Source: Anaerolineae bacterium (GTDB taxonomy: Bacteria > Chloroflexota > Anaerolineae > Aggregatilineales > Phototrophicaceae). From it: a stretch of DNA of 64,000 nucleotides. The stretch spans positions 5,509 through 69,508 of the forward strand of contig DAOUBU010000109.1 in assembly GCA_034432395.1 (NCBI GenBank), read 5' to 3'. Made by a program: the position numbers and the translations under genes. Of this stretch, positions 22,679-35,494 are shown one piece after another (position 1 is the stretch's first letter; each line of letters opens with the position of its first letter). The notes under the pieces are model-generated. The model did not search any database, was not told the origin of the DNA, and saw nothing but the letters and a program-made list of their open reading frames with translations.

Positions 22679-23050
22679 TCATAAATACTCGATGTGATCG
22701 ATCATCTCTTCAGCGCTCAACACGCCGCAGATGACTTCCAGACCACGTACCCAGTCCCCGATCGTGGTGCTGAAATGCTGAGCGATGATGATACCCGCAT
22801 GAGGGATCCCCTCAGCATGCAGCCGCAGAAAATCGTGGTCGAAAGTACAGAGAACGCGCCCCATCGCTGAAGCACGCAGCAGGTGGTTGATATCGGTATC
22901 GCCCAGCAATCCGAGATCGCGTACTGTGACAGCATCGATGCCCCGGCTGCGCATCTGTTGAGCAACAGCGACCTGTACACCTTCATCGAAGTACAGGCGG
23001 ATGGCGCTGCCCAAAGCCCTTGTCCCTGGCTTCACGGATGATCCGGTCAT
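22679..23050 (-). CDS. DUF5615 (Mut7-C/PIN-like) protein, putative toxin
   Basis: IRLYFDEGVQVAVAQQMRSRGIDAVTVRDLGLLGDTDINHLLRASAMGRVLCTFDHDF resembles DUF5615/COG4634. The start is uncertain: the ATG at 23050, or the in-frame GTG or TTG downstream of it. All overlap the 3' end of the DUF433 gene. Confidence 0.65.
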   Translation of the reverse strand: MTGSSVKPGTRALGSAIRLYFDEGVQVAVAQQMRSRGIDAVTVRDLGLLGDTDINHLLRASAMGRVLCTFDHDFLRLHAEGIPHAGIIIAQHFSTTIGDWVRGLEVICGVLSAEEMIDHIEYL

Positions 23051-23291
23051 TTTCCATGATCTGAGCGTCGATCTCGTCCTGATGTTCGTAGTAGTAGGCC
23101 AGTGCCGCATACACCTGCGCCAGCGAGATCTGTAACTGCTCCGCCAGTTCGTCGGGCGTATAGTGACGATAGCGATGATGCGCTGCGACATCCTGCACCA
23201 TCAGCGTCGTCCCGGCGATGATCGGACGTCCGTCGCGGATGCGCGGATCAGAAACGATGGTATTGATCGACAGCACGGTGATATCGCTCAT
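22983..23291 (-). CDS. DUF433 (COG2442) protein, putative antitoxin
   Basis: Trimmed to the ATG at 23291, which is preceded by a GAGAGGA SD. DPRIRDGRPIIAGTTLMVQDV...YTPDELAEQLQISLAQVYAALAYYYEH is the DUF433 signature. Confidence 0.75.
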   Translation of the reverse strand: MSDITVLSINTIVSDPRIRDGRPIIAGTTLMVQDVAAHHRYRHYTPDELAEQLQISLAQVYAALAYYYEHQDEIDAQIMENDRIIREARDKGFGQRHPPVLR

Positions 23292-23455
23292 GGTATTCCT
23301 CTCACAAGTCACAGGGGCACCATTCCAACGGGCTGCGACTCGCTCCCCGGACTCGGCGATCGATCATCACCCGATCGCAGCGCGGGTTCCCTATCATTCA
23401 AGCATACCAGACTTCGCGACAATCCACCGGACTGATGACGGACTTTACCGCACGA

Positions 23456-24247
23456 TCACTCCCGGTCAGCGGATGCCGGTTTCAGACCGCGCGCCAGCAG
23501 ATCGGCGATGTGGATGACGCGCTTGCTGCTGCCCTGGCGGCTCAGGCCGCCGTTCATCTGCGTCAGACAGCTCGCATCCCCGGTGACGATGACGTCGGCA
23601 TCGGCGGCGTTGATGTTCCTGACCTTGTCGTCCAGCATCGCCCCGCTGATCTCCGGCATCTTGACGGCGAACAGGCCGCCGAAACCGCAGCACTGATCTT
23701 CCCCCTCCAGCCGGGTGACGGTCACGCCGTCGATGTGTTCGGCCAGCGCCACCGCCTGCGGCCCCAGCCCGCCCAGGCGCAGCCCATGGCAGGCGTGGTG
23801 GAACGCCACCTTCGTCGGCGGCAGCGCCGCGCCCAGATCGGTGATCCCCAGCCCGTCCACCAGGTACTCGGTCAGCTCCCAGGTGATCGACGCGGCCCAG
23901 TCGGCGCGCGGCCCCCATTCCGGGTCGTCCTTGAACAATTCCGGGTAGTAATGCTGCACCATCGAGGCGCAGCTCCCCGATGGGGTGACGATCACCTCGG
24001 CATCGGCGAAGGCGGTCAGGAACTGGCGGGCGACGGCGCGCGCATCGTCCTGGAAGCCGCTGTTGAAGGCGGGCTGGCCGCAGCACGTCTGAGCAAGCGG
24101 GAAGCGCACCTCGATCCCCAGATGTTCCAGGATCTGGACGACCGAGATCCCGGTTCCGGGGTAGATCATGTCAACGATGCAGGTGACGAACAGCGAGACC
24201 GGCTTGTGCCGCGGTGAGGGACGCAGATCGCGATCGGTGACGGACAT
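23456..24247 (-). CDS. (Fe-S)-binding CCG-domain oxidoreductase subunit (LutA/GlcF-like)
   Basis: Trimmed to the ATG at 24247. It has two cysteine-rich CCG motifs (CCGQPAFNSG and CCGFGGLF) and VSLFVTCIVD, typical of LutA. No lutB or lutC is adjacent. Confidence 0.75.
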   Translation of the reverse strand: MSVTDRDLRPSPRHKPVSLFVTCIVDMIYPGTGISVVQILEHLGIEVRFPLAQTCCGQPAFNSGFQDDARAVARQFLTAFADAEVIVTPSGSCASMVQHYYPELFKDDPEWGPRADWAASITWELTEYLVDGLGITDLGAALPPTKVAFHHACHGLRLGGLGPQAVALAEHIDGVTVTRLEGEDQCCGFGGLFAVKMPEISGAMLDDKVRNINAADADVIVTGDASCLTQMNGGLSRQGSSKRVIHIADLLARGLKPASADRE

Positions 24248-24419
24248 TTCCCAACTTCCTCGATATATCCCTGATGAACACGGTTTATCCAAAATTTGGG
24301 ATTCTGTGGCCTGTTATCCCAAAAATATCCAAAACGATCAAGATTTATCATTAAGAACATGTAAAGATCGATCCTGTGACAATGATCGGATCGATCGGAA
24401 CCTCAGGCGACCATCGGCC

Positions 24420-25487
24420 TCACCAGACTTTGCCGCGCGCGGCCACCGGCCAGATCTGTTCGACGGCGCCATCGCGCCAGCCGCCGCGCACGCCGTAGAT
24501 CTGATCGTGCATGTTGGTGGTCACGCAGGTATGCACCGGGATGATGTGGACGATATCGCCGACATCCGGGCGGTCGGGGCAGGCGCTGAAATCGACGTAG
24601 GCATGTTCTTCGTTGAGGCGGTAGATGCGCGCCTGCGGATATTCGACCAGATAGCCGTAGCCACCGTCGATCGTCTCCGGGGTCAGGGTCTTGCTGCCCG
24701 CGTCGAGGATGCCGCGATCGTCGTTCGGGCGGCTGACGACGGTGCTGCGCACGGCCATGGCGCAGTCATCCAGCGCGCACCAGCCGTTGAGGACGGTCGT
24801 CCAGTCGTTGAAGACATACGTCCCGACACGGATCTCGGTCAGTTCAGGAAATTCGCCCAGGTGCAGCACCGCGCCCGTGCCGCCGCCGCTGATCAGATCG
24901 ACGCCGATGCCGGCTTCGTCCAGCCGGTCGAGCACGTACTGAACAGCCGGTCGGGCCGCCGGATCGCTGGGATACAGCAGCAGGCCGGCGAAGTGCAGGT
25001 GCTCATCGGCCTCGATCTGCTGCGCCAGCTCGACGGCGCGTTCCGGCGGCGCGCCCGCCCGCCGTTGATCGGTCTCCAGTTCGACCAGCACGCGCAGCCT
25101 CAGCCCGGCGGCCTCGCTCGCTGCGGACAGTCCGGCGATCGTCTCCCGGCTGTCCGCCGAGACGGTGATGCGGTTGTACAGCGCCAGATCGGTCAGCCGG
25201 CGGGTCTTGAGCGGGCCGACGATGTTGTAGGGGATGAGGATGTCGTTCAGCCCGGCGGCGGCGAACACCTCCGCCTCGCTCACCTTCTGGCAGGCGATGC
25301 CGATCGCCCCGGCCTCGATCTGCATTCGGGCGATGGCTGGGATCTTGTGCGTCTTCACATGCGCGCGGAAAGCCACCCCGTGTTCGTCGCACAGGGCCTG
25401 CATCCGCTGGATGTTGCGCTCCATGATGGCGAGATCGACCAGCACGGATGGTGTATCGAGGTCATGGACGGTCTGGACATCGGTCAT
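24420..25487 (-). CDS. D-TA-family PLP enzyme (alanine racemase N-terminal fold; D-threonine aldolase/D-serine dehydratase-like)
   Basis: Trimmed to the ATG at 25487 (MTDVQTVHDLDTPSVLVDL). FRAHVKTHKIPAIARMQIEAGAIGIACQKVSEAEVF contains the PLP lysine context of this family. Confidence 0.75.
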   Translation of the reverse strand: MTDVQTVHDLDTPSVLVDLAIMERNIQRMQALCDEHGVAFRAHVKTHKIPAIARMQIEAGAIGIACQKVSEAEVFAAAGLNDILIPYNIVGPLKTRRLTDLALYNRITVSADSRETIAGLSAASEAAGLRLRVLVELETDQRRAGAPPERAVELAQQIEADEHLHFAGLLLYPSDPAARPAVQYVLDRLDEAGIGVDLISGGGTGAVLHLGEFPELTEIRVGTYVFNDWTTVLNGWCALDDCAMAVRSTVVSRPNDDRGILDAGSKTLTPETIDGGYGYLVEYPQARIYRLNEEHAYVDFSACPDRPDVGDIVHIIPVHTCVTTNMHDQIYGVRGGWRDGAVEQIWPVAARGKVW

Positions 25488-25649
25488 CGGCAGATCCGGG
25501 ATCGGGGGCTGAGCCTGTTGACCGGATTGTACCGCGTCCGCGGTCGATCTGTCACCGGGTTGCCCGCCGTGCCGTGGGTGACATGTGACCCAGGCCGGGG
25601 TGAAGAATGTCACTACTGATTAAAGGCTGGTGAGGCCAAACTCAGAATG

Positions 25650-25667
25650 TATATGGATATCCGAATA
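25650..25667. promoter_or_regulatory. Candidate ArsR/SmtB operator
   Basis: 18-bp imperfect inverted repeat TATATGGATATCCGAATA (14 of 18 positions symmetric; perfect core GGATATCC). It abuts the GGTGGAG SD of the arsR-like gene, in an unusually AT-rich stretch. Confidence 0.45.
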
Positions 25668-25683
25668 GGTGGAGTGGGCGATC

Positions 25684-26007
25684 ATGGCCGTCCCCGGACT
25701 CGATGAACTGCAACTGCTGCACACGCAGATGTGCCAGGCAGTCGGCGATCCCCGGCGCATCCAGATCCTGTACGCCCTGCATGACGGGCCGCTGCATGTC
25801 ACGGGTCTGGCGGAGCTGCTCGATGCCCCTCAACCGACGATCTCGCGCCATCTGGCGCTGCTGCGCGATCGCGCGCTGGTGACTGCGGAACGCGACGGGC
25901 AGGCCGTGATCTACCGGCTGACCGATGAGCGGATCATCACTGTGCTCGACCTCATGCGGCAGATGCTGCGCGACTCGCTGGCGCGCCGCGCCAGCACACT
26001 CGATTGA
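25684..26007 (+). CDS. ArsR/SmtB-family transcriptional regulator
   Basis: LCQAVGDPRRIQILYALHDGPLHVTGLAELLDAPQPTISRHLALLRDRALV is a winged-helix HTH. The ATG at 25684 is preferred over the GTG at 25669 because of SD spacing. Confidence 0.88.
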   Translation: MAVPGLDELQLLHTQMCQAVGDPRRIQILYALHDGPLHVTGLAELLDAPQPTISRHLALLRDRALVTAERDGQAVIYRLTDERIITVLDLMRQMLRDSLARRASTLD

Positions 26008-26041
26008 TCGTTTTTAGCAGGCACGCAGGAGCTGTGTGACG

Positions 26042-27469
26042 ATGCTGCGTTCGTTCAAGTACATCTGGCTGCTGGGCCTGATCGGCACGGTGGCCATCGT
26101 CGTCGGGGTCGTGCTGCTGGCGCTGTCACCGCTGCAAACGGAAGCAGCCGGCGATCCCTGGGCGCATGTTCCGGTGCGCCTGGAGCCGACCGATCACCGC
26201 GCGTTGATGCCGGGGCCGTATGAAACCGGGCCGGAGGTGACCGCCGCCTGCCTGACGTGCCATGAGGATGCGGCGCATCAGGTGGCCATGACCACGCACT
26301 GGACCTGGCAGAGTCCGCCGGTGCAGGTGGCCTGGCGCGATGAGCCGGTCTCGATCGGCAAGGCCAATGTCATCAACAATTTCTGTATCGGCATTCAGTC
26401 CAATGAGCCGGACTGCACGCGCTGTCACGTGGGGTACGGCTGGGAGGACGATACCTTCGACTTCACCAACCTGGACAATGTGGACTGCCTGGTCTGCCAC
26501 GACCAGACCGGCACCTACGTCAAAGGGGAAGCCGGGCTGCCGCAGGAGAACGTCGATCTGACGCTGGTCGCCCAGAACGTGGGTATACCGACGCGCAATA
26601 ACTGCGGCAGTTGTCACTTCAATGGCGGCGGCGGCAACGGCGTCAAGCACGGCGACCTCGACTCCAGCCTGTACTTCCCGTCGGAGACGCTCGATGTCCA
26701 CATGGGCCGTTATGACTTCCTGTGCATCGACTGCCACCAGACGCATGATCACGAGATCGCCGGGCGGTCGTTCACAGTCAGCGCCGACAACGCCAATCAG
26801 ATCGGCTGCACCGACTGCCATGAGCCGACGCTGCATGAAGACGATCGCATCACCAGCCATATCGACAGCGTGGCCTGCCAGACGTGCCATATCCCGTCGG
26901 TGGCGCGGCGCGATCCCACGCGCGTCAGTTGGGACTGGTCGCAGGCGGGCGATATGACGCGCGAGAACGTGCCCGGGCTGTACCTGCAAACGCGCGGCGA
27001 GTTCCTCTCCACCCTCAATTACATGCCGACGTATGCCTGGTACAACGGCACGGGCATGCGCTACCTGCTGGGCGATCTGATCGATCCGCTCAACATCACC
27101 GTGCTGGCGCAGCCGCTGGGCACGATCGACGATCCCAATGCCGTCATCTTCCCGTTCAAGATCCACTACGGCGTTCAGCCATACGATACCGAGTACAACA
27201 TCCTGCTCCAGCCGACGACGGCGGGCGAGGGCGGGTACTGGCATACCTTCGATTGGGACTCGGCGCTGGCTCACGGCGCGGAGGCCGCTGGCATCCCCTA
27301 CAGCGGACACTACGATTTCGCCGAGACGGCGATGTACTGGCCGCTGACGCACATGGTGCAGCCCGCCGAGTACGCGCTGACCTGTACTGACTGCCACAGC
27401 GACAACGGGCGCATGGACTGGCAGGCTCTCGGCTATTACGGCGATCCGATGGTCTGGGGCGGGCGGTAG
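26042..27469 (+). CDS. Octahaem c-type cytochrome, tetrathionate-reductase (Otr)-like family
   Basis: N-terminal signal-anchor and exactly eight CXXCH motifs: CLTCH, CTRCH, CLVCH, CGSCH, CIDCH, CTDCH, CQTCH, CTDCH. The eighth lies about 170 aa after the seventh. Size about 475 aa. AGGAG SD about 10 nt upstream of the ATG at 26042. Assignment to the Otr family rather than the HAO/ONR/MccA families rests on size and motif spacing from memory. Confidence 0.8.
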   Translation: MLRSFKYIWLLGLIGTVAIVVGVVLLALSPLQTEAAGDPWAHVPVRLEPTDHRALMPGPYETGPEVTAACLTCHEDAAHQVAMTTHWTWQSPPVQVAWRDEPVSIGKANVINNFCIGIQSNEPDCTRCHVGYGWEDDTFDFTNLDNVDCLVCHDQTGTYVKGEAGLPQENVDLTLVAQNVGIPTRNNCGSCHFNGGGGNGVKHGDLDSSLYFPSETLDVHMGRYDFLCIDCHQTHDHEIAGRSFTVSADNANQIGCTDCHEPTLHEDDRITSHIDSVACQTCHIPSVARRDPTRVSWDWSQAGDMTRENVPGLYLQTRGEFLSTLNYMPTYAWYNGTGMRYLLGDLIDPLNITVLAQPLGTIDDPNAVIFPFKIHYGVQPYDTEYNILLQPTTAGEGGYWHTFDWDSALAHGAEAAGIPYSGHYDFAETAMYWPLTHMVQPAEYALTCTDCHSDNGRMDWQALGYYGDPMVWGGR

Positions 27470-27482
27470 GAGTGAAAGCGAG

Positions 27483-29999
27483 ATGACTCACACCATGCTG
27501 CGTCGCACCTTCATCGCGCTTGTCGTCGGTTTCGGTTTCACTTTCATCGGGCTGGGCGTCTGGCTGCTCGGCGCGCAGCCGACCAGCGCGCAGACCAACC
27601 CGGCATTTCACCCGCCTGTCACACTGCTCGATGCGCAGGGCGTGCCCGTCTACGAGTCGGGCGCGCCCGCCTCGACGATGACGACGTGCGGGACGTGCCA
27701 CGATACCGCGTTCATCGCTGCCACCAGCGGCCATGCGGACGGTGCGCTGCGCACTGTCGCGGTCGGCGTCGAGCCATCCGCCCCCGCTGAGCCTAGCGGC
27801 GTCGAGATCAACTGCTTCCTGTGTCATATGGCCGAGCCGGACAACGCGGCCCGGCTGGCGGCCATCGACGGGGGCCAGTCCGAATGGGCCAGCAGCGCGA
27901 CGCTGGCCACGACCGGTCTGATCGCGCCCGCAGATGATGGCTGGGCCTGGAACCGCGAGGCGTTCAACGCCGATGGCAGCGTGCCTTCCAGCGTGCTGGG
28001 CATTCAGGATCCGACCGATGCCAACTGCGGCGCGTGCCACGGCACTGTGCACACCGATGCGCAGACGCCCCTCGTGCTGGCCAGCGGTGACGCCGGCTGG
28101 GAGACCCTGCTGCGCGGGCAGGTGGTATCGCCGCAGCGCATCGCCAACAGCGGCCTGAATTTGGAGGATAAACCGGAACTGACCCGCGTCTGGGACGTGC
28201 ACGCCGAGCGCGTCGTCGGCTGCACCGACTGCCACTACGCGATCAACAACCCGGTGTACGACACCGAGCCGACGGGCAGCCGGCCCGCCCACCTGCTCTT
28301 CGACCCGCGGCGCATGGATTTCGGGGAATATCTGCACCGCCCGATGCACACCCTGGCCAATTCGACCGCCGCGCAGATGGCCGGCTTCGCTGGAGCGGAG
28401 CGCTCGTGCGCCTCGTGCCATGACGCTGCATCCACCCATACCTGGCTGCCCTACACGCAGCGTCATATGGACGTGCTGGCCTGCGAGACCTGCCACATCC
28501 CCGAACTGTACGCTCCGGCGCTGGAGCGCGTCGATTTCACCACCGTTCACGCGGACGGCACGCCGCTCATGGCCTATCGTGGGCTGGAGGGCGATCTGAT
28601 CACCGGCTTCCAGCCAGTGCTGCTGCCCGCCGAAGGCGTCGATGGCGGGATGCGCCTCTCCCCGTACAACCTGGTCAGCCGCTGGTACTGGGTGGACTCC
28701 AGCGGGACGCCGGTCAGCGCGGCGGACGTGCAGGCGGCCTGGCTGGTCGATGGCGCGTATGCGCCGGAGATCCTGACCGTGTTCGACGCCGATGGCAGCG
28801 GCACGCTGGATGAGACGGAACTCATGCTCGACACGCCGGCCAAGATCGATGCGATCGCGGCGCGGCTGGCCGCGCGCGGCATCGACAACCCGCACATCCG
28901 CGCCGACGTGCAGCCGTTCGCGCTGCATCACAACGTCATCGGCGGCCAGTGGGCGACCGGTGACTGCGCGACCTGCCACGCCGATCAATCGCGGCTGGCC
29001 GCGCCGATCGTGCTGACGTCGTTCACGCCCGGCGGCGTCGATCCGATCCTGGATGGCGGGCGGACGGATGGTGCGCTGGTCGGCTCGATCCAGCGGACGG
29101 ACGACGGCACGCTGCTGTATTACCCGGCGCTGGCCGCTGCACCGCCGAGCACCGATCTGGTCAACCTGTACGTGCTCGGCCATCATGACGTGGACTGGGT
29201 CAACCTGGCCGGCGTGCTGATGCTGCTGGGCGTGGCCGCCGGGGTCAGCGTGCATGGCGGGCTGCGCTACCTGAGCGCGCGCCGTCAGGCGGGGCATCTG
29301 TCCGCCGAGGTCAAACCGGTCTACATGTACACGGTGTACGAGCGCTTCTGGCACTGGATGCAGACGGTGGCCATCTTCGGGCTGCTGTTCACCGGCATCG
29401 TCATCCACATGCCGGATACGTTCAGCATGTTCAGTTTCCAGGCGATGGTGCTGATCCACAACGGCCTGGCCATCCTGCTGCTGATCAACGCGGCGCTGGC
29501 GCTGTTCTACCATCTGGCGAGCGGCGAGATCCGGCAGTTCCTGCCGCGCCCCTACGGCTTCTTCGATCAGATGTTCGCCCAGGCCAAGTACTACCTGTGG
29601 GGCATCTTCCGCGGTGAGCCGCATCCGTTCGCCAAGACGCCCGATCACAAGCTGAACCCGCTGCAGCAGCTCACGTATCTGGCCATCCTCAACGTGCTGC
29701 TGCCGCTGCAGGTCATCACCGGCATCCTGATGTGGGGTGCGCAGGAATTCCCGACCCTGACGGCGCAGCTCGGCGGGCTGGGCTTCCTGGCCCCGCTGCA
29801 CACGCTGGTGGCCTGGGCGTTCGCGTCGTTCATCGTCCTGCATGTCTACCTGACCACCACCGGGCACACGCCGCTGGCCAACATCAAGGCGATGATGCTC
29901 GGCTGGGATGAAGTCGAAACCGGTTCCCACACGTCCGGGGCGCATGCAGCGCCCGGCGCGGAGCCAACAGCATCTGGAGCACAGGGGGAGAAAGCATGA
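27483..29999 (+). CDS. Fusion protein: N-terminal heptahaem c-type cytochrome domain plus C-terminal membrane dihaem b-type cytochrome (FdnI/HydC, Ni_hydr_CYTB-like)
   Basis: Signal peptide and seven CXXCH motifs: CGTCH, CFLCH, CGACH, CTDCH, CASCH, CETCH, CATCH. An EF-hand-like loop DADGSGTLDETE lies at 28785-28820. The C-terminal roughly 230 aa have 4-5 TM helices with YERFWHW, VLIHNG, FYHL and PLHTLVAWAFASFIVLHVY histidines, typical of cytochrome b561/FdnI-type subunits. Confidence 0.85.
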   Translation: MTHTMLRRTFIALVVGFGFTFIGLGVWLLGAQPTSAQTNPAFHPPVTLLDAQGVPVYESGAPASTMTTCGTCHDTAFIAATSGHADGALRTVAVGVEPSAPAEPSGVEINCFLCHMAEPDNAARLAAIDGGQSEWASSATLATTGLIAPADDGWAWNREAFNADGSVPSSVLGIQDPTDANCGACHGTVHTDAQTPLVLASGDAGWETLLRGQVVSPQRIANSGLNLEDKPELTRVWDVHAERVVGCTDCHYAINNPVYDTEPTGSRPAHLLFDPRRMDFGEYLHRPMHTLANSTAAQMAGFAGAERSCASCHDAASTHTWLPYTQRHMDVLACETCHIPELYAPALERVDFTTVHADGTPLMAYRGLEGDLITGFQPVLLPAEGVDGGMRLSPYNLVSRWYWVDSSGTPVSAADVQAAWLVDGAYAPEILTVFDADGSGTLDETELMLDTPAKIDAIAARLAARGIDNPHIRADVQPFALHHNVIGGQWATGDCATCHADQSRLAAPIVLTSFTPGGVDPILDGGRTDGALVGSIQRTDDGTLLYYPALAAAPPSTDLVNLYVLGHHDVDWVNLAGVLMLLGVAAGVSVHGGLRYLSARRQAGHLSAEVKPVYMYTVYERFWHWMQTVAIFGLLFTGIVIHMPDTFSMFSFQAMVLIHNGLAILLLINAALALFYHLASGEIRQFLPRPYGFFDQMFAQAKYYLWGIFRGEPHPFAKTPDHKLNPLQQLTYLAILNVLLPLQVITGILMWGAQEFPTLTAQLGGLGFLAPLHTLVAWAFASFIVLHVYLTTTGHTPLANIKAMMLGWDEVETGSHTSGAHAAPGAEPTASGAQGEKA

Positions 30000-30571
30000 C
30001 CACACTCAATCCAACCAGTCCCACCGTCGGACGGGCCGGCGCCCAGACCCGCGTCCAGCGGGTCGAGCGGCCCTACATCAACCCGTACCTGGGCGGGATC
30101 CTGCTCGGCATCGTCCTGTTCCTGGCGTTCTTCATCACCGGCAATGGCCTGGGCGCATCGGGCGGCATGAACCGGATCCTGGTCTACGTTGAAGATCTGA
30201 TCGCGCCGGGGCACATCGACCGCGTGCGCTACCTGCTCGACATGGCGGGCGGCGACAAGAACCCGCTCGATAGCTGGGTGGTGTTCATCACCGTCGGCAC
30301 GATCCTGGGCGGCGCGTACAGCGGCTGGCGCAACGGACGCCTGAAGATGGAGATCAACAAAGGGCCGCGCATCAGCGGCCGCACCCGCCTGCTCATGGCA
30401 TTCATCGGCGGCGCGCTGATGGGGTACGGGGCGCGTCTGGCGCGCGGCTGCACCTCCGGTCAGGCGCTCAGCGGTGGCGCGGTGCTCTCGGTCGGAAGCT
30501 GGGCGTTCATGTTCGCGGTGTTCGCCGGCGCTTACGCACTGGCGTACTTCGTCCGCCGGCTGTGGACGTAA
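29996..30571 (+). CDS. YeeE/YedE-family sulfur-transport membrane protein (half-size, subunit 1)
   Basis: The ATG at 29996 overlaps the upstream stop (ATGA). Polytopic, with GNGLGASGG and ARGCTSGQALSGG motifs characteristic of the Sulf_transp (YeeE/YedE) family. Confidence 0.8.
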   Translation: MTTLNPTSPTVGRAGAQTRVQRVERPYINPYLGGILLGIVLFLAFFITGNGLGASGGMNRILVYVEDLIAPGHIDRVRYLLDMAGGDKNPLDSWVVFITVGTILGGAYSGWRNGRLKMEINKGPRISGRTRLLMAFIGGALMGYGARLARGCTSGQALSGGAVLSVGSWAFMFAVFAGAYALAYFVRRLWT

Positions 30572-30583
30572 GGGAGGGCGGCC

Positions 30584-31819
30584 ATGACTCCGTTTCCACT
30601 TGACCTGAATGCCATCCTCGGCCACTGGCCGTCGTACATCGTCTACGTGCTGATCGGCTTCGGTTTCGGCTACGTGCTGGAAAGCTCCGGTTTTGGCAAA
30701 TCGACCAAGCTGGCCGGTCAGTTCTACCTGCGCGAGATGACCGTGCTCAAGGTCATGTTCGGCGCCATCATCACCGCGATGATTGGCGTCTTCCTGACCT
30801 CGGCGCTGGGGCTGCTCGATTACAATCTGGTGTGGGTCAACCCGACCTACCTGTGGCCGGGGATCGTCGGCGGCCTGATCATGGGCGTCGGCTTCATCAT
30901 CGGCGGTTTCTGCCCCGGCACGTCGCTGGTCTCCGCCGCCACGCTCAAGCTCGACGGCATCCTGTTCGCCGCGGGGGTGTTCTTCGGCATCTTCGCCTTC
31001 GGCGAGACGGTCGGCCTGTATGAGGATTTCTGGTACTCGTCGTACATGGGGCGCTTCACCCTGCCGGAACTGTTCAACGTCGATACCGGCGTGGTCGTGC
31101 TCGGCGTGGTGCTGATGGCGCTGGCCGCCTTCGGGCTGGCGGAAGTGAGCGAGCGGGTCTTCGGCAAAGGGCTGATCCCGAAACAGCCGCGCTGGCGCTT
31201 CGGCGCGGCGGGCGTCCTGATCGCACTGGCCGTGGTCACGCTGGCGATCGGCCAGCCGACCAACGCTGACCGTCAGCAGTGGCTGGCGGAGGAGCAGGAG
31301 ACGGCCATCAGCGAGCGGCGCATCCAGATCCACCCGGCGGAGCTGCTCTCGTATCTGAACAACCGCATGGTCATCCCGTATCTGATCGACGTGCGCAGCG
31401 AGACGGATTTCAACAAGTTCCACCTGCCAGAGGCGCATCACGTGCCGCTCGATCGGGTGCTGGCGCTGGGGCCGCAGCTCAGTCTTCAGCCCGATAACAC
31501 GCTGTTCGTGATCATGAGCAACGATGAGACGGCGGCGACGCAGGCCTGGCGCATCCTGAACGCCGAGAGCGTGCCCAACCTGTACATCCTGGAGGGCGGG
31601 ATCAACCGCTGGATCGAGACGTTTGCCGATCCGGAGTTCGTCGCGGCGAACCGGATCGCCGGCGCCGCCGACGATCAGCTCGCCTTCCGCTTCGATGCCG
31701 CGCTGGGCGATCGTCAGCCGATGGCGCGGCCGTCCCCGGATGTCTTCGCCAACCTCGAATACGAGCCGCGCGTGACGCTGGTGCTCAAGCGCGGGGCGGG
31801 CGGCGGCGGCTGCGGCTGA
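30584..31819 (+). CDS. YeeE/YedE-family membrane protein (half-size, subunit 2) fused to a C-terminal rhodanese-fold domain
   Basis: GGGAGGG SD upstream. The N-terminal roughly 200 aa are polytopic with FGYVLESSGFG and GGFCPGTSLVSA. The C-terminal segment LIDVRSETDFNKFHLPEAHHVPL...LFVIMSNDETAATQAWRIL...LYILEGGINRW is a rhodanese fold with Ser in place of the catalytic Cys. The protein ends in GAGGGGCG. Confidence 0.8.
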   Translation: MTPFPLDLNAILGHWPSYIVYVLIGFGFGYVLESSGFGKSTKLAGQFYLREMTVLKVMFGAIITAMIGVFLTSALGLLDYNLVWVNPTYLWPGIVGGLIMGVGFIIGGFCPGTSLVSAATLKLDGILFAAGVFFGIFAFGETVGLYEDFWYSSYMGRFTLPELFNVDTGVVVLGVVLMALAAFGLAEVSERVFGKGLIPKQPRWRFGAAGVLIALAVVTLAIGQPTNADRQQWLAEEQETAISERRIQIHPAELLSYLNNRMVIPYLIDVRSETDFNKFHLPEAHHVPLDRVLALGPQLSLQPDNTLFVIMSNDETAATQAWRILNAESVPNLYILEGGINRWIETFADPEFVAANRIAGAADDQLAFRFDAALGDRQPMARPSPDVFANLEYEPRVTLVLKRGAGGGGCG

Positions 31820-31849
31820 CGTCCCGCTGACCACCCCGATAGGCCAACC

Positions 31850-31883
31850 GGGCCGGCTGTGCTCTCCGCGGTGCAGCCGGCCC
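31850..31883 (+). terminator. GC-rich hairpin after the haem/YeeE operon (possible terminator)
   Basis: 10-bp perfect stem GGGCCGGCTG (31850-31859) / CAGCCGGCCC (31874-31883) with a 14-nt loop, 31 nt after the stop. There is no immediate U-tract; an AT-rich stretch follows about 20 nt later. Confidence 0.35.
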
Positions 31884-31965
31884 AGTCGTTGATCGTCAAT
31901 CGGCAATTTTTAAATTGATGTTAAAATAAGTTTAAGAATTGTCGATAGCGCCGGAGGTGCGGACG

Positions 31966-32448
31966 ATGACGCTGGAAACGCAGTTCACGGCGGCACTGTA
32001 TCTGCTGCTGGCCGCATTTCTCAGTGCGGTGGTCGGTCTGGAGCGCGAGCACCGGCATAAAAACGCCGGGCTGCGCACGCATATTCTGGTCGGGGTCGGG
32101 GCGTGCCTGTTCACGCTGCTGTCGCTGTATGCGTTTCCGGGGTCGGAGACGGGGCGCATCGCCGCCAATATCGTCGTCGGCATCGGCTTTCTGGGCGCGG
32201 GGGTCATCTACCGCAGTCATGACCGCGTCCACGATCTGACCACGGCGGCCAGTATCTGGGTGACGGCGGCCATCGGCATGGCGGTCGGGACAGGGGCCTG
32301 GTTCCTGAGCATCGCGGCGGCGCTGCTGGTCTGGTTCATCCTGCGCGTGCTTTACCATATGCGCTCGCATGCGCAGGCCGGAAGCGTTCCCGCCGAGGGC
32401 AAAAACGCCCCGGGCGGCGCGCTCGTCAACAGCCCGGGCAGCGCGTGA
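31966..32448 (+). CDS. MgtC/SapB-family membrane protein
   Basis: Trimmed to the ATG at 31966, preceded by a [37 protein letters not shown] is the MgtC signature. Confidence 0.85.
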
Positions 32449-32531
32449 TGCGCCGGCTATCCTCGATCGCCGCGCCCGTCTCTGGTATCTTCTGATCCGT
32501 GATCGAGAGCACCCGGATCGCAGGAGAGGCC

Positions 32532-33284
32532 ATGCGCGAAATCGATATCCTCGGCGTGCGCACCCACGCCCAGCCGTTCGCCGCTGCGATCGCGACGCTG
32601 CTGGACTGGGCGCAGCAGCCGGTCGGGCGTTACGTCTCAACCTGTCCCGTCTACACGCTGATGCGGGCGGTGGAGGATGCGGATGTCCGGTCGGCGGTGA
32701 CGGGTGCGGATCTCATCACCGCCGACGGGATGCCAGTGGTCTGGTTGCAGCGGCGGCGCGGCGCGCCGGAGGCCGAGCGCGTTTACGGCCCGGATATCAT
32801 GCTGGCGCTGTGCGAGCGTGGCGTGCCGCTGGGGCTGCGGCATTACCTGCTCGGCGGCGTCGGCGATACCGCCGAACGGCTGGCCGCCGTCCTGCAGAGC
32901 CGGTTTCCGGGGCTGATCATCGCCGGGATGGCCTCGCCGATGGTCGCTGATCCGCCCCAGATCGATCCGGCGCTGGTCGCGCAGATCAAGGCGGCGCGCC
33001 CGCATGTCATCTGGGTCGGGTTCGGGTCGCCCAAACAGGATCGGTGGATGGCGGCGCACCGATCGACGCTGCCGGCGCTCATGATCGGGGTCGGGGCCGC
33101 GTTCGACCTACTGACGGGCCGCAAGAAGCAGGCCCCGCGCTGGATCCAGCGCAGCGGTCTGGAATGGCTGTATCGACTGGTGCAGGAACCGCGCCGGCTG
33201 TGGCGGCGCTACCTCGTTTACAATGCGCGCTTTCTGTGGCTGCTGGCGCGCCGCGGTGAATGGCGGCGCGGTCACGGCGCGTGA
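32532..33284 (+). CDS. WecB/TagA/CpsF-family glycosyltransferase
   Basis: Trimmed to the ATG at 32532, preceded by a GGAGAGG SD. Carries TADGMPVVW, GFGSPKQDRWM, GVGAAFD and GLEWLYRLVQEPRRLWRRY motifs. Confidence 0.85.
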   Translation: MREIDILGVRTHAQPFAAAIATLLDWAQQPVGRYVSTCPVYTLMRAVEDADVRSAVTGADLITADGMPVVWLQRRRGAPEAERVYGPDIMLALCERGVPLGLRHYLLGGVGDTAERLAAVLQSRFPGLIIAGMASPMVADPPQIDPALVAQIKAARPHVIWVGFGSPKQDRWMAAHRSTLPALMIGVGAAFDLLTGRKKQAPRWIQRSGLEWLYRLVQEPRRLWRRYLVYNARFLWLLARRGEWRRGHGA

Positions 33285-33425
33285 CCCGCTCAAGTTCCAT
33301 TCCCCTTCACTGTTAATAACCTGTCAGTTAACAAATTCGATGTATACTGAAGATCAGCGGCGATCGTGCTGATGCGATCGTCGGTACGATCATGCATTAT
33401 TTGTCTGAACTCATCTGGAGATGGT

Positions 33426-33947
33426 ATGGGACTGTTCTGGTACGTGCTGCAGAGCAAGCCGCGCAAAGAAGTCCAGGTACACCGTTATCTGCTGGAACGC
33501 GATATCGAGGTTTTCTTTCCGCACATTCACGTCAGGCCCGCCAACCCCCGCTCCTCGCCGATCCGCCCGTATTTTGCGCGGTATCTGTTCATCCAGGTCG
33601 ATTTCGATACGCTCAGCGCCAGCGCGCTGCGCTGGATGCCGGGCGTGCTCGGCCTGGTCGAATTCGGCGGCGAGCCGGCCATCATCCCGGATAACTACAT
33701 CTACGAGCTGCGCCGTCGGCTGGCCAGCCTGAAAGCGGTCGAGTTCGCCCGGATTGACGATTTCAAACGCGGCGAGCCGGTCACGATCACCAGCGGGCCG
33801 TTCGAAGGGCACGAGGCGATCTTCGATATGCGCCTGAGCGGGGAAGATCGGGCGCAGGTGCTGCTGCACTGGCTGGGGCGGCAGGTCAGGGTCACGGTCA
33901 GCGGGGGCGCGCTGCGGCGCAAGCCCGCGCGGCCAGCCGCCGGATAA
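33426..33947 (+). CDS. NusG-family specialised paralog (RfaH/LoaP/UpxY-like transcription antiterminator)
   Basis: Trimmed to the ATG at 33426. NGN-type N-terminus WYVLQSKPRKEVQVHRYLLERDIEVFFPHI and KOW motif GEPVTITSGPFEGHEAIFD. 173 aa. Located in a polysaccharide locus behind an AT-rich leader. Confidence 0.75.
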   Translation: MGLFWYVLQSKPRKEVQVHRYLLERDIEVFFPHIHVRPANPRSSPIRPYFARYLFIQVDFDTLSASALRWMPGVLGLVEFGGEPAIIPDNYIYELRRRLASLKAVEFARIDDFKRGEPVTITSGPFEGHEAIFDMRLSGEDRAQVLLHWLGRQVRVTVSGGALRRKPARPAAG

Positions 33948-34450: not shown

Positions 34451-35365
34451 TCACCTTCCAGTTCTGACTCTGAAGGTAGCCTGTGTGATCGAAAACGGGG
34501 TGTTGGTGGCGAACACCGGCGGCGCGTCAGTGGGCAGCGGCATGAAGGTGCTGAACGCGGTGGGCGGCGCTGTCGTAGGCTGGATCAGCAGAGGGATCGG
34601 CGTCAACGTCGGGGTGGCGGTCGGCGTCGTCGTCGGCGTATGGGTCAGCGTCGGTGTCGCAGTGGATGACGGCGTGAAGGTCGTGGACGGCGTCACGGTG
34701 GCGCTGGGGGTCATGGTGAAGGTCGCCGTCGGGGAGGATGTCAGCGTCGGGATGAGCGATGAGGTCGCTGCAGCAGTTGCCGACGGAGCAGGTTGTTGAT
34801 CAGCCCCGCCCCCGACCTGAAGCTGAGCGGTCGCCTCAGCGGTGGGCGGCGTCCCCGGCGCGATCTCGCGCGCATCATCGCGCCCGGCGAGCAGGAACAG
34901 CGCGATCAGGGTGAGCGCGCCCAATCCCGCCGCGGCGATCGAGAGCAGGCGCACGATCTGACCTGATCGGGGGATGTTCATCTCATCCGCCGCTGAGGGC
35001 TGTTCCATGGAGGGTGCGGGCAGCGGCCCGAAGCTGCTGACATCGGGCACGACCTGGCGCAGCGCTGCGATCAACTGGTCGATCTGGTTGGCCCGGTTGA
35101 CGAAATAGATCGGGCGCTTGAACGTCTGGGCGACGTGATAGTCCTCGCTCAGATATGCAGGGACAGTTTCCCCTTCAGACCAGATGAATACGAAAACAGC
35201 GGCCCCTTTGAACGCCGCATCGAGGATCGCCGCGGACGCGGCGTCGCTGTATCCGAGGTCGGGTTCGCGCCGCCAGACACGAAAATCGTTCGCTTCCAGC
35301 CGCCGGTGCACCTGCTCGGCGAGTTCCCGGCTGGCCGGTGTATAACTCAGGCAGATATAAGCCAT
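34451..35365 (-). CDS. TIR-like domain protein with single TM helix and Pro/Thr-rich extracytoplasmic tail
   Basis: Trimmed to the ATG at 35365. The N-terminal roughly 105 aa (YICLSYTPASRELAEQVHRRLEANDFRVWRRE...AVFVFIWSEGETVPAYLSEDYHVA) follow the TIR_2 pattern (hydrophobic strand-SY, helix, vW.d, second strand, S..W...E...A). TM helix IVRLLSIAAAGLGALTLIALFLLAG. About 130 aa of T/P/S/A repeats follow. Confidence 0.55.
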   Translation of the reverse strand: MAYICLSYTPASRELAEQVHRRLEANDFRVWRREPDLGYSDAASAAILDAAFKGAAVFVFIWSEGETVPAYLSEDYHVAQTFKRPIYFVNRANQIDQLIAALRQVVPDVSSFGPLPAPSMEQPSAADEMNIPRSGQIVRLLSIAAAGLGALTLIALFLLAGRDDAREIAPGTPPTAEATAQLQVGGGADQQPAPSATAAATSSLIPTLTSSPTATFTMTPSATVTPSTTFTPSSTATPTLTHTPTTTPTATPTLTPIPLLIQPTTAPPTAFSTFMPLPTDAPPVFATNTPFSITQATFRVRTGR

Positions 35366-35494
35366 GCTGAGATCGATCACCGTCAGAAGACACGCCTGTC
35401 TCACTTTATTCTACAGCGAGACAGGCGTGCGCGCAGGTTTACTGGTCTGAGGAGAGGCTGCCCGGTACCGCCATCTGGTGCACGAGGCGGCGGA

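Follow-up and report, generated by a model that had tools for sequence, protein, structure and literature searches.

The 64,000-nucleotide stretch of DNA analysed here (the window), from contig DAOUBU010000109.1 of an Anaerolineae bacterium, carries an operon of five co-directional genes on the + strand. Plausibly, the operon encodes a module that reduces sulfur compounds outside the cytoplasm with electrons from menaquinol and that has Otr, an octahaem c-type cytochrome, at its centre. Function, substrate and electron direction are read from the sequence, and we give this interpretation about an even chance. The genes encode an ArsR-type repressor (25684-26007), Otr (26042-27469), a fusion of a seven-haem c-type domain with a cytochrome b (27483-29999), and two halves of a YeeE/TsuA-type channel (29996-30571 and 30584-31819). 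The second half-channel continues into a rhodanese-like domain and ends in a cysteine-bearing arm, a candidate sulfur carrier. An open reading frame (ORF) check and profile searches place all five genes where an initial annotation of this DNA had put them.

The product of otr (26042-27469, + strand) has an N-terminal signal or anchor helix followed by an extracytoplasmic catalytic domain; an alternative GTG start lies at 26036. In the profile search it scores 556 bits against TIGR04315, the 'tetrathionate reductase family octaheme' model (cut-off 375). It contains 17 cysteines and exactly eight CXXCH motifs, the number counted initially, as are the seven of the next gene; variant haem motifs of the CXXCK or CX3-4CH kind occur in neither protein. 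Shewanella OTR (1SP3) is its sole PDB sequence match, with a whole-length alignment over residues 51-470 (E = 3e-148). The haem-2 ligand K56 and residues N61, N62, and C64 (1SP3 numbering) are invariant in 51/51 aligned sequences, the window protein included. All 17 cysteine columns are conserved among these Otr sequences, and the only cysteine outside a haem motif is the C64 equivalent. By these residues, the active site with its lysine-ligated haem 2 appears intact.

A neighbour-joining tree of Otr proteins groups those linked to the fusion and the channel in a single clade, whose sister is Shewanella OTR; those encoded with a plain cytochrome b fall into another deep clade. The profile score bears out the original description of gene 2 as Otr-like. 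The window protein and Shewanella OTR have in common the family, the eight CXXCH motifs, the haem-2 lysine and N61, N62, and C64. However, the Shewanella enzyme is described as soluble, periplasmic and fed via CymA and STC, whereas here a single operon supplies a dedicated c7/cytochrome b partner, a split channel and a cysteine-arm carrier. A second, divergent Otr paralogue (42-45% identity) occurs near the main module in some Anaerolineae and Ardenticatenaceae loci (L036:873-3120, L044:11890-13227). In L036 the paralogue is followed by a plain cytochrome b, so that both types of Otr module lie side by side in one genome.

The Otr sequence bears directly on one alternative, in which the enzyme is a six-electron sulfite reductase like MccA/SirA; the cysteine arm would capture the extracellular sulfide product as a persulfide, and the channel would import it for assimilation or sensing. 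A 2026 Shewanella study suggested that OTR may reduce sulfite and pointed out that its eight haems can be superimposed on those of MccA (PMC12949373). Strain ZRK33 of Phototrophicus methaneseepsis, which carries the cluster, assimilates oxidised sulfur according to a multi-omics paper, and PmpAB-type proteins, to which the channel is related, are reported to import zero-valent sulfur (PMC11582611). Yet the 17 cysteines of Otr are fully accounted for by 16 in haem motifs and the C64 equivalent, leaving neither a CX15CH motif nor an extra cysteine pair for an MccA-type copper site. MccA gave no score in the hidden Markov model (HMM) search, and structures of HAO, ONR, and MccA are all missing from the PDB sequence matches. 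Moreover, membranes are no barrier to sulfide, which would leave little use for a carrier and a channel. A sulfite reductase is therefore considered unlikely.

Gene 3 (27483-29999, + strand) encodes a putative menaquinol dehydrogenase, composed of an N-terminal anchor, an extracytoplasmic c7 domain and a C-terminal di-haem cytochrome b of the PhsC/FdnI/HydC type. The protein has 14 cysteines and exactly seven CXXCH motifs. At least 673 relatives of the c-haem/cytochrome b fusion exist; seven CXXCH motifs are present in 117/117 full-length ones examined, and H624, H659, H773, and H787, all located in transmembrane (TM) helices and the putative ligands of the two b-haems, are 100% conserved in the same set. 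The cytochrome b domain matches PF01292 (80.1 bits, cut-off 30.1) and contains five TM helices, which sharpens an earlier estimate of four to five. Its even-numbered loops are rich in lysine and arginine, and its N terminus reads as outside. The best NCBIfam match is PhsC (NF011582, 129 bits, under the cut-off of 204), and PhsA and PhsB are not encoded near the cluster. The fusion thus shares the PF01292 type with the PhsC/FdnI/HydC cytochromes b but scores under the PhsC cut-off.

The seven-haem domain gave a single weak match in a PDB sequence search. CbcL of Geobacter, by description alone, is similar in that a PF01292-type di-haem cytochrome b and a multihaem c domain form a gate between quinol and periplasm. 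CbcL contains nine haems, whereas the fusion here has seven and would serve a dedicated soluble-substrate reductase. The architecture implies an electron path from quinol through a di-haem b and seven c-haems to the eight-haem Otr on the outer face, in agreement with the route from the quinone pool through 15 c-haems to an extracytoplasmic reductase that was first proposed.

Genes 4 and 5 encode the two halves of a channel, each matching part of PF04143 (Sulf_transp). The PmpA-like product of gene 4 (29996-30571, + strand) corresponds to the C-terminal half (profile positions 168-309), and the PmpB-like segment of gene 5 (30584-31258, + strand) to the N-terminal half (positions 4-195). These matches, together with one to PF00581, substantiate the early assignment of YeeE/YedE halves with a rhodanese fold on the second. 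Gene 4 aligns to residues 237-326 of the TsuA structure 6LEO, C293 included. Cys152 of gene 4 (RGCTSG) is the equivalent of TsuA C293 and is at least 95% conserved, and exactly one cysteine is found in 43/45 orthologues of gene 4. Cys110 of gene 5 (GGFCPGTS) is invariant and equivalent to TsuA C91. In TsuA, C293 is the outer site of thiosulfate capture, C91 is central, and C22 is inner and dispensable (PMC7449682). The idea that the arm replaces a missing outer channel cysteine was discarded, because C293 is present as C152 of gene 4 and the missing residue is the inner C22.

The channel resembles the split PmpA/PmpB type, in which two adjacent half-size Sulf_transp genes carry one conserved cysteine each (PMC11582611); both genes here have these features. 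Scores against the TsuA models are under the cut-offs (NF041049, 19.9 vs 645; NF052577, 37.4 vs 400). Several differences set the window channel apart from PmpA/PmpB, TsuA-TsuB, and SoxT. The PmpB-like half carries two more TM helices, a pseudo-rhodanese domain and a cysteine arm. Furthermore, both channel genes lie inside a multihaem respiratory operon, and a cytoplasmic partner of the TusA/YeeD type is not encoded. The pairing of YeeE-type genes with an ArsR-type repressor recalls the soxSRT and sHdrR systems.

Gene 5 contains six TM helices, namely those of the TsuA N-half and two further ones, and its loop charges alternate between outside and inside. The loop charges across 14 diverse orthologues are -0.8, +1.6, -0.9, -2.6, +3.1, and -1.4, a positive-inside pattern. 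In TsuA (YeeE), the N terminus is outside, the C terminus is inside, and helix 7 reverses the orientation of the halves (PMC7449682). Because the charge pattern and the homology to TsuA agree, the rhodanese-like domain and its arm are predicted to lie outside the cytoplasm, in the same compartment as Otr and the c-haems of gene 3.

The C-terminal part of gene 5 is built from a rhodanese-like domain with a folded extension of ~55 residues (31259-31792, + strand) and a flexible arm ending in GAGGGGCG-COOH (31793-31819, + strand). The domain matches PF00581 (48.7 bits, cut-off 22.2), and a Foldseek search with it matched only single-domain rhodaneses. In the AlphaFold2 (AF2) model, residues ~230-403 adopt the rhodanese-like fold and extension with a predicted local distance difference test (pLDDT) score of 85-94, and residues 404-411 form a disordered arm (pLDDT < 50). 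The catalytic position is occupied by Ser312 in the loop MSNDE, and serine or glycine stands there in 118/118 full-length database homologues; a cysteine is kept in two Bacteroidota-type loci only among the loci found in GTDB species genomes. A rhodanese domain that lacks the catalytic cysteine and is predicted to be extracytoplasmic is not a classical cytoplasmic relay. The rhodanese sulfur-relay domain proposed in the initial annotation is thus abandoned.

That annotation had also overlooked the terminal cysteine. G408, G409, C410, and G411 are invariant in the orthologue alignment (Cys410 codon 31811-31813, stop 31817-31819). A GGCG(G/S) tail ends all 118 full-length homologues, in the exact form GGCGG in 2/118, and 116/118 contain only two cysteines. 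The cysteine tail is found in 38/41 complete GTDB orthologues, and two of the three exceptions look frameshifted (L016, L043). Over all fetched loci, a cysteine lies within the last three residues in 113/115 complete C-termini. The invariant cysteine of the C-terminal GGCG is, from this pattern, the candidate sulfur-carrying residue.

Two other roles for this tail can be weighed against the same data. The cysteine could be a redox-maintenance or assembly thiol that, for example, keeps channel or cytochrome cysteines reduced outside the cell and carries no substrate. A lone exposed thiol outside the cell is easily oxidised, and a C22-C91 disulfide is present in TsuA crystals (PMC7449682). The protein contains no thioredoxin-like CXXC motif, however, and a strict C-terminal GGCG on a disordered arm matches carrier arms and not oxidoreductases, which renders a maintenance role highly improbable. 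The least probable of the alternatives considered is reduction and uptake of selenium or tellurium oxyanions. YedE-type and rhodanese-like proteins have been linked to selenium metabolism, and NCBIfam gave weak matches to selenium transporters (YedE/FdhT) and to a family of rhodanese-related (seleno)proteins. These matches are far under the cut-offs, selenocysteine variants of the tail are found in none of 115 loci, and selD, selA, and yedF are not encoded nearby.

With the extracytoplasmic domain as query, HMMER searched 1.84 billion representative proteins exhaustively and returned 246 clusters at E <= 1e-10. The homologues include two forms of the carrier. The fused form of ~410 residues has the tail in 30/30 cases. 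A stand-alone carrier of ~210 residues consists of one TM anchor, a 'GQPT' exit motif, the domain and the GGCG tail, which is present in 51/55; one such gene lies directly 3' of PmpA- and PmpB-like genes. A metagenome scan with the stand-alone carriers yielded 80 loci. In 22/22 metagenome loci with sufficient upstream DNA, the carrier comes after Otr, the c7 domain, cytochrome b, PmpA, and PmpB; it is fused to PmpB in 18 of the 22 and encoded separately in four. The occurrence of fused and separate forms links carrier and channel, and in the loci examined the carrier is never seen outside an Otr operon. The parts of the operon belong to known families, but their assembly, and above all the family of tethered pseudo-rhodanese carriers, appears undescribed.

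Three other kinds of protein surfaced in these searches. A word-indexed search with the extracytoplasmic domain alone returned mostly fragments, and the shorter carrier-domain proteins that it found on long contigs proved to be frameshift pieces inside the same operon; the stand-alone carriers emerged from the HMMER search. An apparent chimera of cytochrome b and rhodanese (P0265) looks like a deletion or misassembly. Giant proteins of 1200-2300 residues (P0361, with 2327 residues, P0371, P0412, and P0504) contain 7-16 tandem rhodanese-like stretches, and none has the cysteine tail.

A scan of one genome per GTDB species gave 63 loci. The order Otr, c7-cytochrome b fusion, PmpA, PmpB-rhodanese is kept in every locus whose contig reaches far enough, some 40 species genomes in six or more phyla. 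These include Chloroflexota, Actinomycetota (Acidimicrobiia), Bacteroidota-type metagenome-assembled genomes (MAGs), KSB1, and Fibrobacteria. Recurrence of the order in dozens of species genomes and in metagenome contigs is more than chance would give. A version with Otr and a stand-alone cytochrome b is accompanied by the channel pair and the carrier in Ignavibacteria and Balneolales, and in Beggiatoa otr adjoins a gene for a PhsC-like cytochrome b (PMC6449678). Cultured P. methaneseepsis ZRK33 (CP062983.1) has the same five genes in the same order, with the gene 3/4 overlap. The multi-omics paper on this strain does not mention the cluster. Thiosulfate-induced 'TST' proteins of ZRK33 were rejected as gene 5 orthologues, since they map to ~2.55 and ~3.46 Mb and the cluster to ~3.89 Mb (~3,890,050-3,896,320). 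The product of gene 5 is 100% identical to a protein of a Candidatus Flexifilum MAG, a member of a filamentous activated-sludge genus of Chloroflexota for which O2 is the sole listed electron acceptor.

Clustering of the flanking ORFs of the 63 loci revealed no further neighbours conserved across phyla. As the flanking genes are unrelated to the module in the window and vary between loci, the module is self-contained. The initial annotation had reached the same view from the window and had suspected that the gene combination was not a described system. Full-text searches, which did not cover subscription-only papers, found no description of the gene set or of a GGCG-tailed carrier. The near-absolute synteny with a YeeE-type channel across phyla makes a sulfur substrate the most plausible, and a sulfur oxyanion was already the class favoured at the outset.

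The following mechanism is proposed for the reductase module. Menaquinol would be oxidised at the cytochrome b of gene 3, and the electrons would pass via two b-haems and 15 c-haems to haem 2 of Otr. The cysteine arm, working like the arms of SoxY or DsrC, would covalently capture a sulfur species that is either oxidised or zero-valent. Thiols and tetrathionate react spontaneously to R-S-S-SO3-; with polysulfide or S0, thiols form R-S-Sn-. The favoured chemistry is thus a spontaneous reaction of tetrathionate or another polythionate with the arm thiolate to yield carrier-S-S-SO3-; alternatively, polysulfide or S0 would yield carrier-S-Sn-. Otr would then reductively cleave the adduct, and the thiosulfate or sulfane sulfur released at the mouth of the channel would move inward via Cys152 and then Cys110. 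The reductive direction is favoured because the potential of the tetrathionate/thiosulfate couple is ~+198 mV and that of menaquinone, presumably the quinone of the host phyla, is ~-74 mV.

An oxidative, Sox-like scheme reverses this flow. Otr would then do for the carrier cysteine what SoxXA does for SoxY, joining thiosulfate or sulfide to it, and the electrons would reach the quinone pool through the 15 c-haems. SoxXA and TsdA are haem enzymes with such chemistry, and PhsC/FdnI-type cytochromes b can run in either direction. Coupling of thiosulfate at ~+200 mV, however, cannot reduce menaquinone without energy input. The arm is SoxY-like, and otr adjoins soxY-S3 and soxZ in sulfur-oxidising lucinid symbionts (PMC11237559), but a SoxB-like hydrolase or other downstream Sox genes are found in none of the loci. 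We regard the oxidative scheme as very unlikely.

The arm of the proposed reductive module has parallels in several known carriers. SoxY possesses a swinging arm that ends in GGCGG-COOH. The arm here likewise has a glycine-flanked cysteine near the C terminus of a flexible segment, GGCG-COOH, and is predicted to share its compartment with a haem enzyme. SoxYZ is nevertheless an analogue and not a relative: no SoxY or SoxZ match was obtained in Pfam or NCBIfam, the fold is that of rhodanese and not the immunoglobulin-like fold of SoxY, a conserved SoxZ-like neighbour is absent, and the carrier is membrane-tethered or channel-fused instead of soluble. DsrC also has a C-terminal cysteine arm, on a different fold, and in its system, where the arm is reduced via DsrMKJOP, quinol-derived electrons reduce protein-bound sulfur. 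Sud and Psr of Wolinella similarly combine an extracytoplasmic rhodanese-fold protein, a periplasmic carrier of polysulfide, with a quinol-linked sulfur reductase, and Sud (1QXN) is a weak PDB match of the domain. Sud, however, uses a canonical active-site cysteine and Psr is a molybdoenzyme, whereas here a serine occupies that site, the cysteine is C-terminal and the reductase is multihaem. Transfer from an arm to a channel also has a precedent in the proposal of the Dahl laboratory that the SoxY cysteine hands sulfur into YeeE-like SoxT channels (PMC11582611). Further precedents for the sulfur reductase are the position of otr beside soxY-S3 and soxZ in lucinid symbionts, its position beside the PhsC-like cytochrome b gene in Beggiatoa, and the induction of an acidobacterial otr by tetrathionate.

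A broader hypothesis, which we hold only tentatively, is that Otr-family enzymes are carrier-dependent and do not act as tetrathionate reductases on the free anion. The membrane-anchored GGCG pseudo-rhodaneses, a family not recognised before, would carry sulfur covalently between the environment, the Otr active site and the PmpAB/YeeE channel, and the system would be a reductive, quinol-driven counterpart of Sox, widespread in Chloroflexota, Actinomycetota, Bacteroidota, and allied phyla.

Several observations weigh against the proposed sulfur reductase. Shewanella OTR is weakly active on tetrathionate in vitro and highly active on nitrite and hydroxylamine, and an otr deletion has no tetrathionate phenotype (PMC12949373). 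Otr and cytochrome b loci of Desulfobacterales and Acidobacteriota lack the channel and the carrier, which indicates that the carrier is not obligatory for Otr catalysis. The rhodanese loop (SNDE) is acidic, so the domain probably binds no anions itself. The operon encodes no cytoplasmic acceptor such as TusA, YeeD, or DsrE, and its ArsR protein resembles metal sensors as much as sulfur sensors. Finally, the topology of gene 5 is a prediction; since AF2 modelled the membrane half poorly (pLDDT 30-45), it relies on charge bias and homology.

The first of these points lends itself to a nitrogen-based reading, in which Otr is a nitrite or hydroxylamine reductase for ammonification or detoxification with its own quinol dehydrogenase, and the channel and carrier are unrelated or loosely coupled to it. 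The active-site residues of the window protein are identical to those of the Shewanella enzyme that prefers both substrates. The linkage to a sulfur-type channel and to a carrier seen only in Otr operons is near-absolute across phyla, however, and nitrogen-cycle genes are not conserved nearby. An environmental otr also responds to a sulfur compound, tetrathionate having raised an acidobacterial otr 36-fold in sediment microcosms. A nitrogen role is consequently thought quite unlikely, and the quinol-driven sulfur reductase remains our preferred interpretation.

The first gene of the operon (arsR, 25684-26007, + strand) encodes a 107-residue repressor of the ArsR/SmtB family that matches NF033788 (82.3 bits, cut-off 55) and PF01022 (HTH_5; 51, cut-off 22). 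Its ATG start matches the gene calls of public assemblies; an alternative GTG start lies at 25669. Its scores are under the cut-offs for BigR (43.8 vs 155), TsoR, and CmtR, and the closest solved structures are NmtR, HlyU, and SrnR. TsoR, the second-best NCBIfam score (57.7 bits, cut-off 115), was rejected as a lead, and literature searches for it found nothing relevant. One cysteine (xCQAxGDP) is conserved in all Chloroflexota orthologues and a second is absent. A tyrosine replaces the 'ILC' cysteine of HlyU, and the cysteine pair of BigR, SqrR, and HlyU is not present. The ArsR/SmtB fold, a palindromic operator and a location beside YeeE-type genes are common to this protein and BigR, SqrR, SoxR, and sHdrR. 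It differs from them in scoring under the BigR cut-off, in the position of its one cysteine and in the absence of the second.

Only Chloroflexota have the arsR gene, apart from one Fibrobacteria locus with a divergent version; elsewhere the core module lacks ArsR. ArsR is a lineage-specific addition. The module can thus be called ArsR-gated, as it was at first, in Chloroflexota and the one Fibrobacteria locus, but not in the other phyla.

A candidate ArsR-type operator, TATATGGATATCCGAATA (25650-25667), lies upstream of arsR. The aligned consensus TATTCG-N6-CGAATA stands immediately before the Shine-Dalgarno (SD) sequence (GGTGGAG in the window) and, with at most two mismatches, is found 29-60 nt upstream of arsR in 12/14 ArsR-bearing loci, against a background of 0.05 per kb. 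At this threshold it occurs once in the 64-kb window. The 18-bp inverted repeat noticed in the initial annotation is a genuine operator candidate because it is conserved upstream of arsR across loci. It is symmetric at only 14/18 positions, though, and the conserved arms are the outer hexamers, the left one degenerate here, and not the GGATATCC core first emphasised. One Chloroflexota locus (L006) has a perfect TATTCG-N6-CGAATA ~118 nt upstream of otr and no ArsR by tblastn; its regulator may be divergent, lost or encoded elsewhere.

Further upstream, the CRP/FNR-type palindrome GTGAAGAATGTCAC (25600-25613), a putative activator site, is centred ~52 bp upstream of the centre of the ArsR operator. 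GTGA-N6-TCAC with at most one mismatch is found 85-134 nt upstream of arsR in 9/14 ArsR-bearing loci (eight exact). In 11 Actinomycetota loci without ArsR, an exact copy lies 175-205 nt upstream of otr. Since the neighbouring genes change from locus to locus, the site is part of the operon. Were GTGAAGAATGTCAC to work as a class II activator site, transcription would begin just before the operator. In Chloroflexota, ArsR would repress its own operon at TATTCG-N6-CGAATA, just downstream of this inferred promoter, and a CRP/FNR-family regulator probably activates the operon. ArsR may have the imported sulfur species as its effector. The ~196-bp intergenic region upstream of arsR also holds a second palindrome with GTGAC, TGGGTGACATGTGACCCA (25575-25592).

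Within the operon, the stop codon of gene 3 and the start codon of gene 4 overlap as ATGA (29996-29999), which implies translational coupling; the overlap was first thought to stand in for an SD sequence, but an SD-like GGGGGAG also lies 5 nt ahead of the ATG. A GC-rich hairpin follows the last gene (31847-31886, + strand) and is a possible terminator or mRNA stabiliser. Its 13-nt arms are 92% complementary and form a 14-bp stem in the minimum-free-energy fold, which is more stable than shuffled sequences (z = -2.85). The hairpin described early on is therefore real, with a stem of 13-14 bp instead of 10 bp. It has no adjacent U-tract, the terminator scan made no call there, and an Rfam scan of 24000-33000 gave zero matches. 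Two long antisense ORFs on the - strand, 27156-30005 (949 aa) and 29846-31906 (686 aa), overlap genes 2-5 and were dismissed as artefacts of high GC content, as were similar ones in other high-GC loci. Such ORFs beat the true genes in naive longest-ORF calling, and their 'homologues' in other loci arise because the sense genes are conserved.

The flanks of the operon in the window encode a DUF433/DUF5615 pair, a CCG-domain protein, a D-serine-dehydratase-like enzyme, MgtC, WecG, a NusG paralogue, a low-molecular-weight (LMW) phosphatase and a TIR protein. At 22679-23312 (- strand), the genes for DUF433 (109 aa) and DUF5615 (170 aa) overlap in a way typical of a putative toxin-antitoxin-like pair. 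The NusG paralogue (33366-33947, + strand), a 193-aa ORF from GTG (173 aa in the public assembly), has WecG on one side and, some way downstream, polysaccharide genes (Wzz, epimerase) on the other; it may act as a specialised antiterminator like RfaH or LoaP. At 34451-35404 (- strand), a TIR-domain protein (weak Pfam match) with a TM segment and a long C-terminal region rich in proline, threonine and alanine adjoins the LMW phosphotyrosine phosphatase.

OTR was crystallised in 2004, and a 2026 study still describes its physiological function as never established (PMC12949373). This 20-year-old orphan enzyme now gains a concrete set of partners. Throughout a large clade of Otr proteins, spread over six or more phyla, otr is invariably accompanied by genes for a dedicated quinol dehydrogenase, a split channel of the YeeE type and a tethered carrier with a cysteine arm, which argues for a role in sulfur over nitrogen metabolism; the real substrate of Otr may be protein-bound sulfur. 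The fusion of a cysteine arm to a half-channel also offers independent genomic support for the view that SoxY-type arms hand sulfur to YeeE-like channels. The proposal is directly testable, because the identical five-gene cluster is present in cultured P. methaneseepsis ZRK33. For the abundant Chloroflexota of wastewater and sediments, such as Ca. Flexifilum, the module would represent a possible anaerobic electron-accepting pathway.

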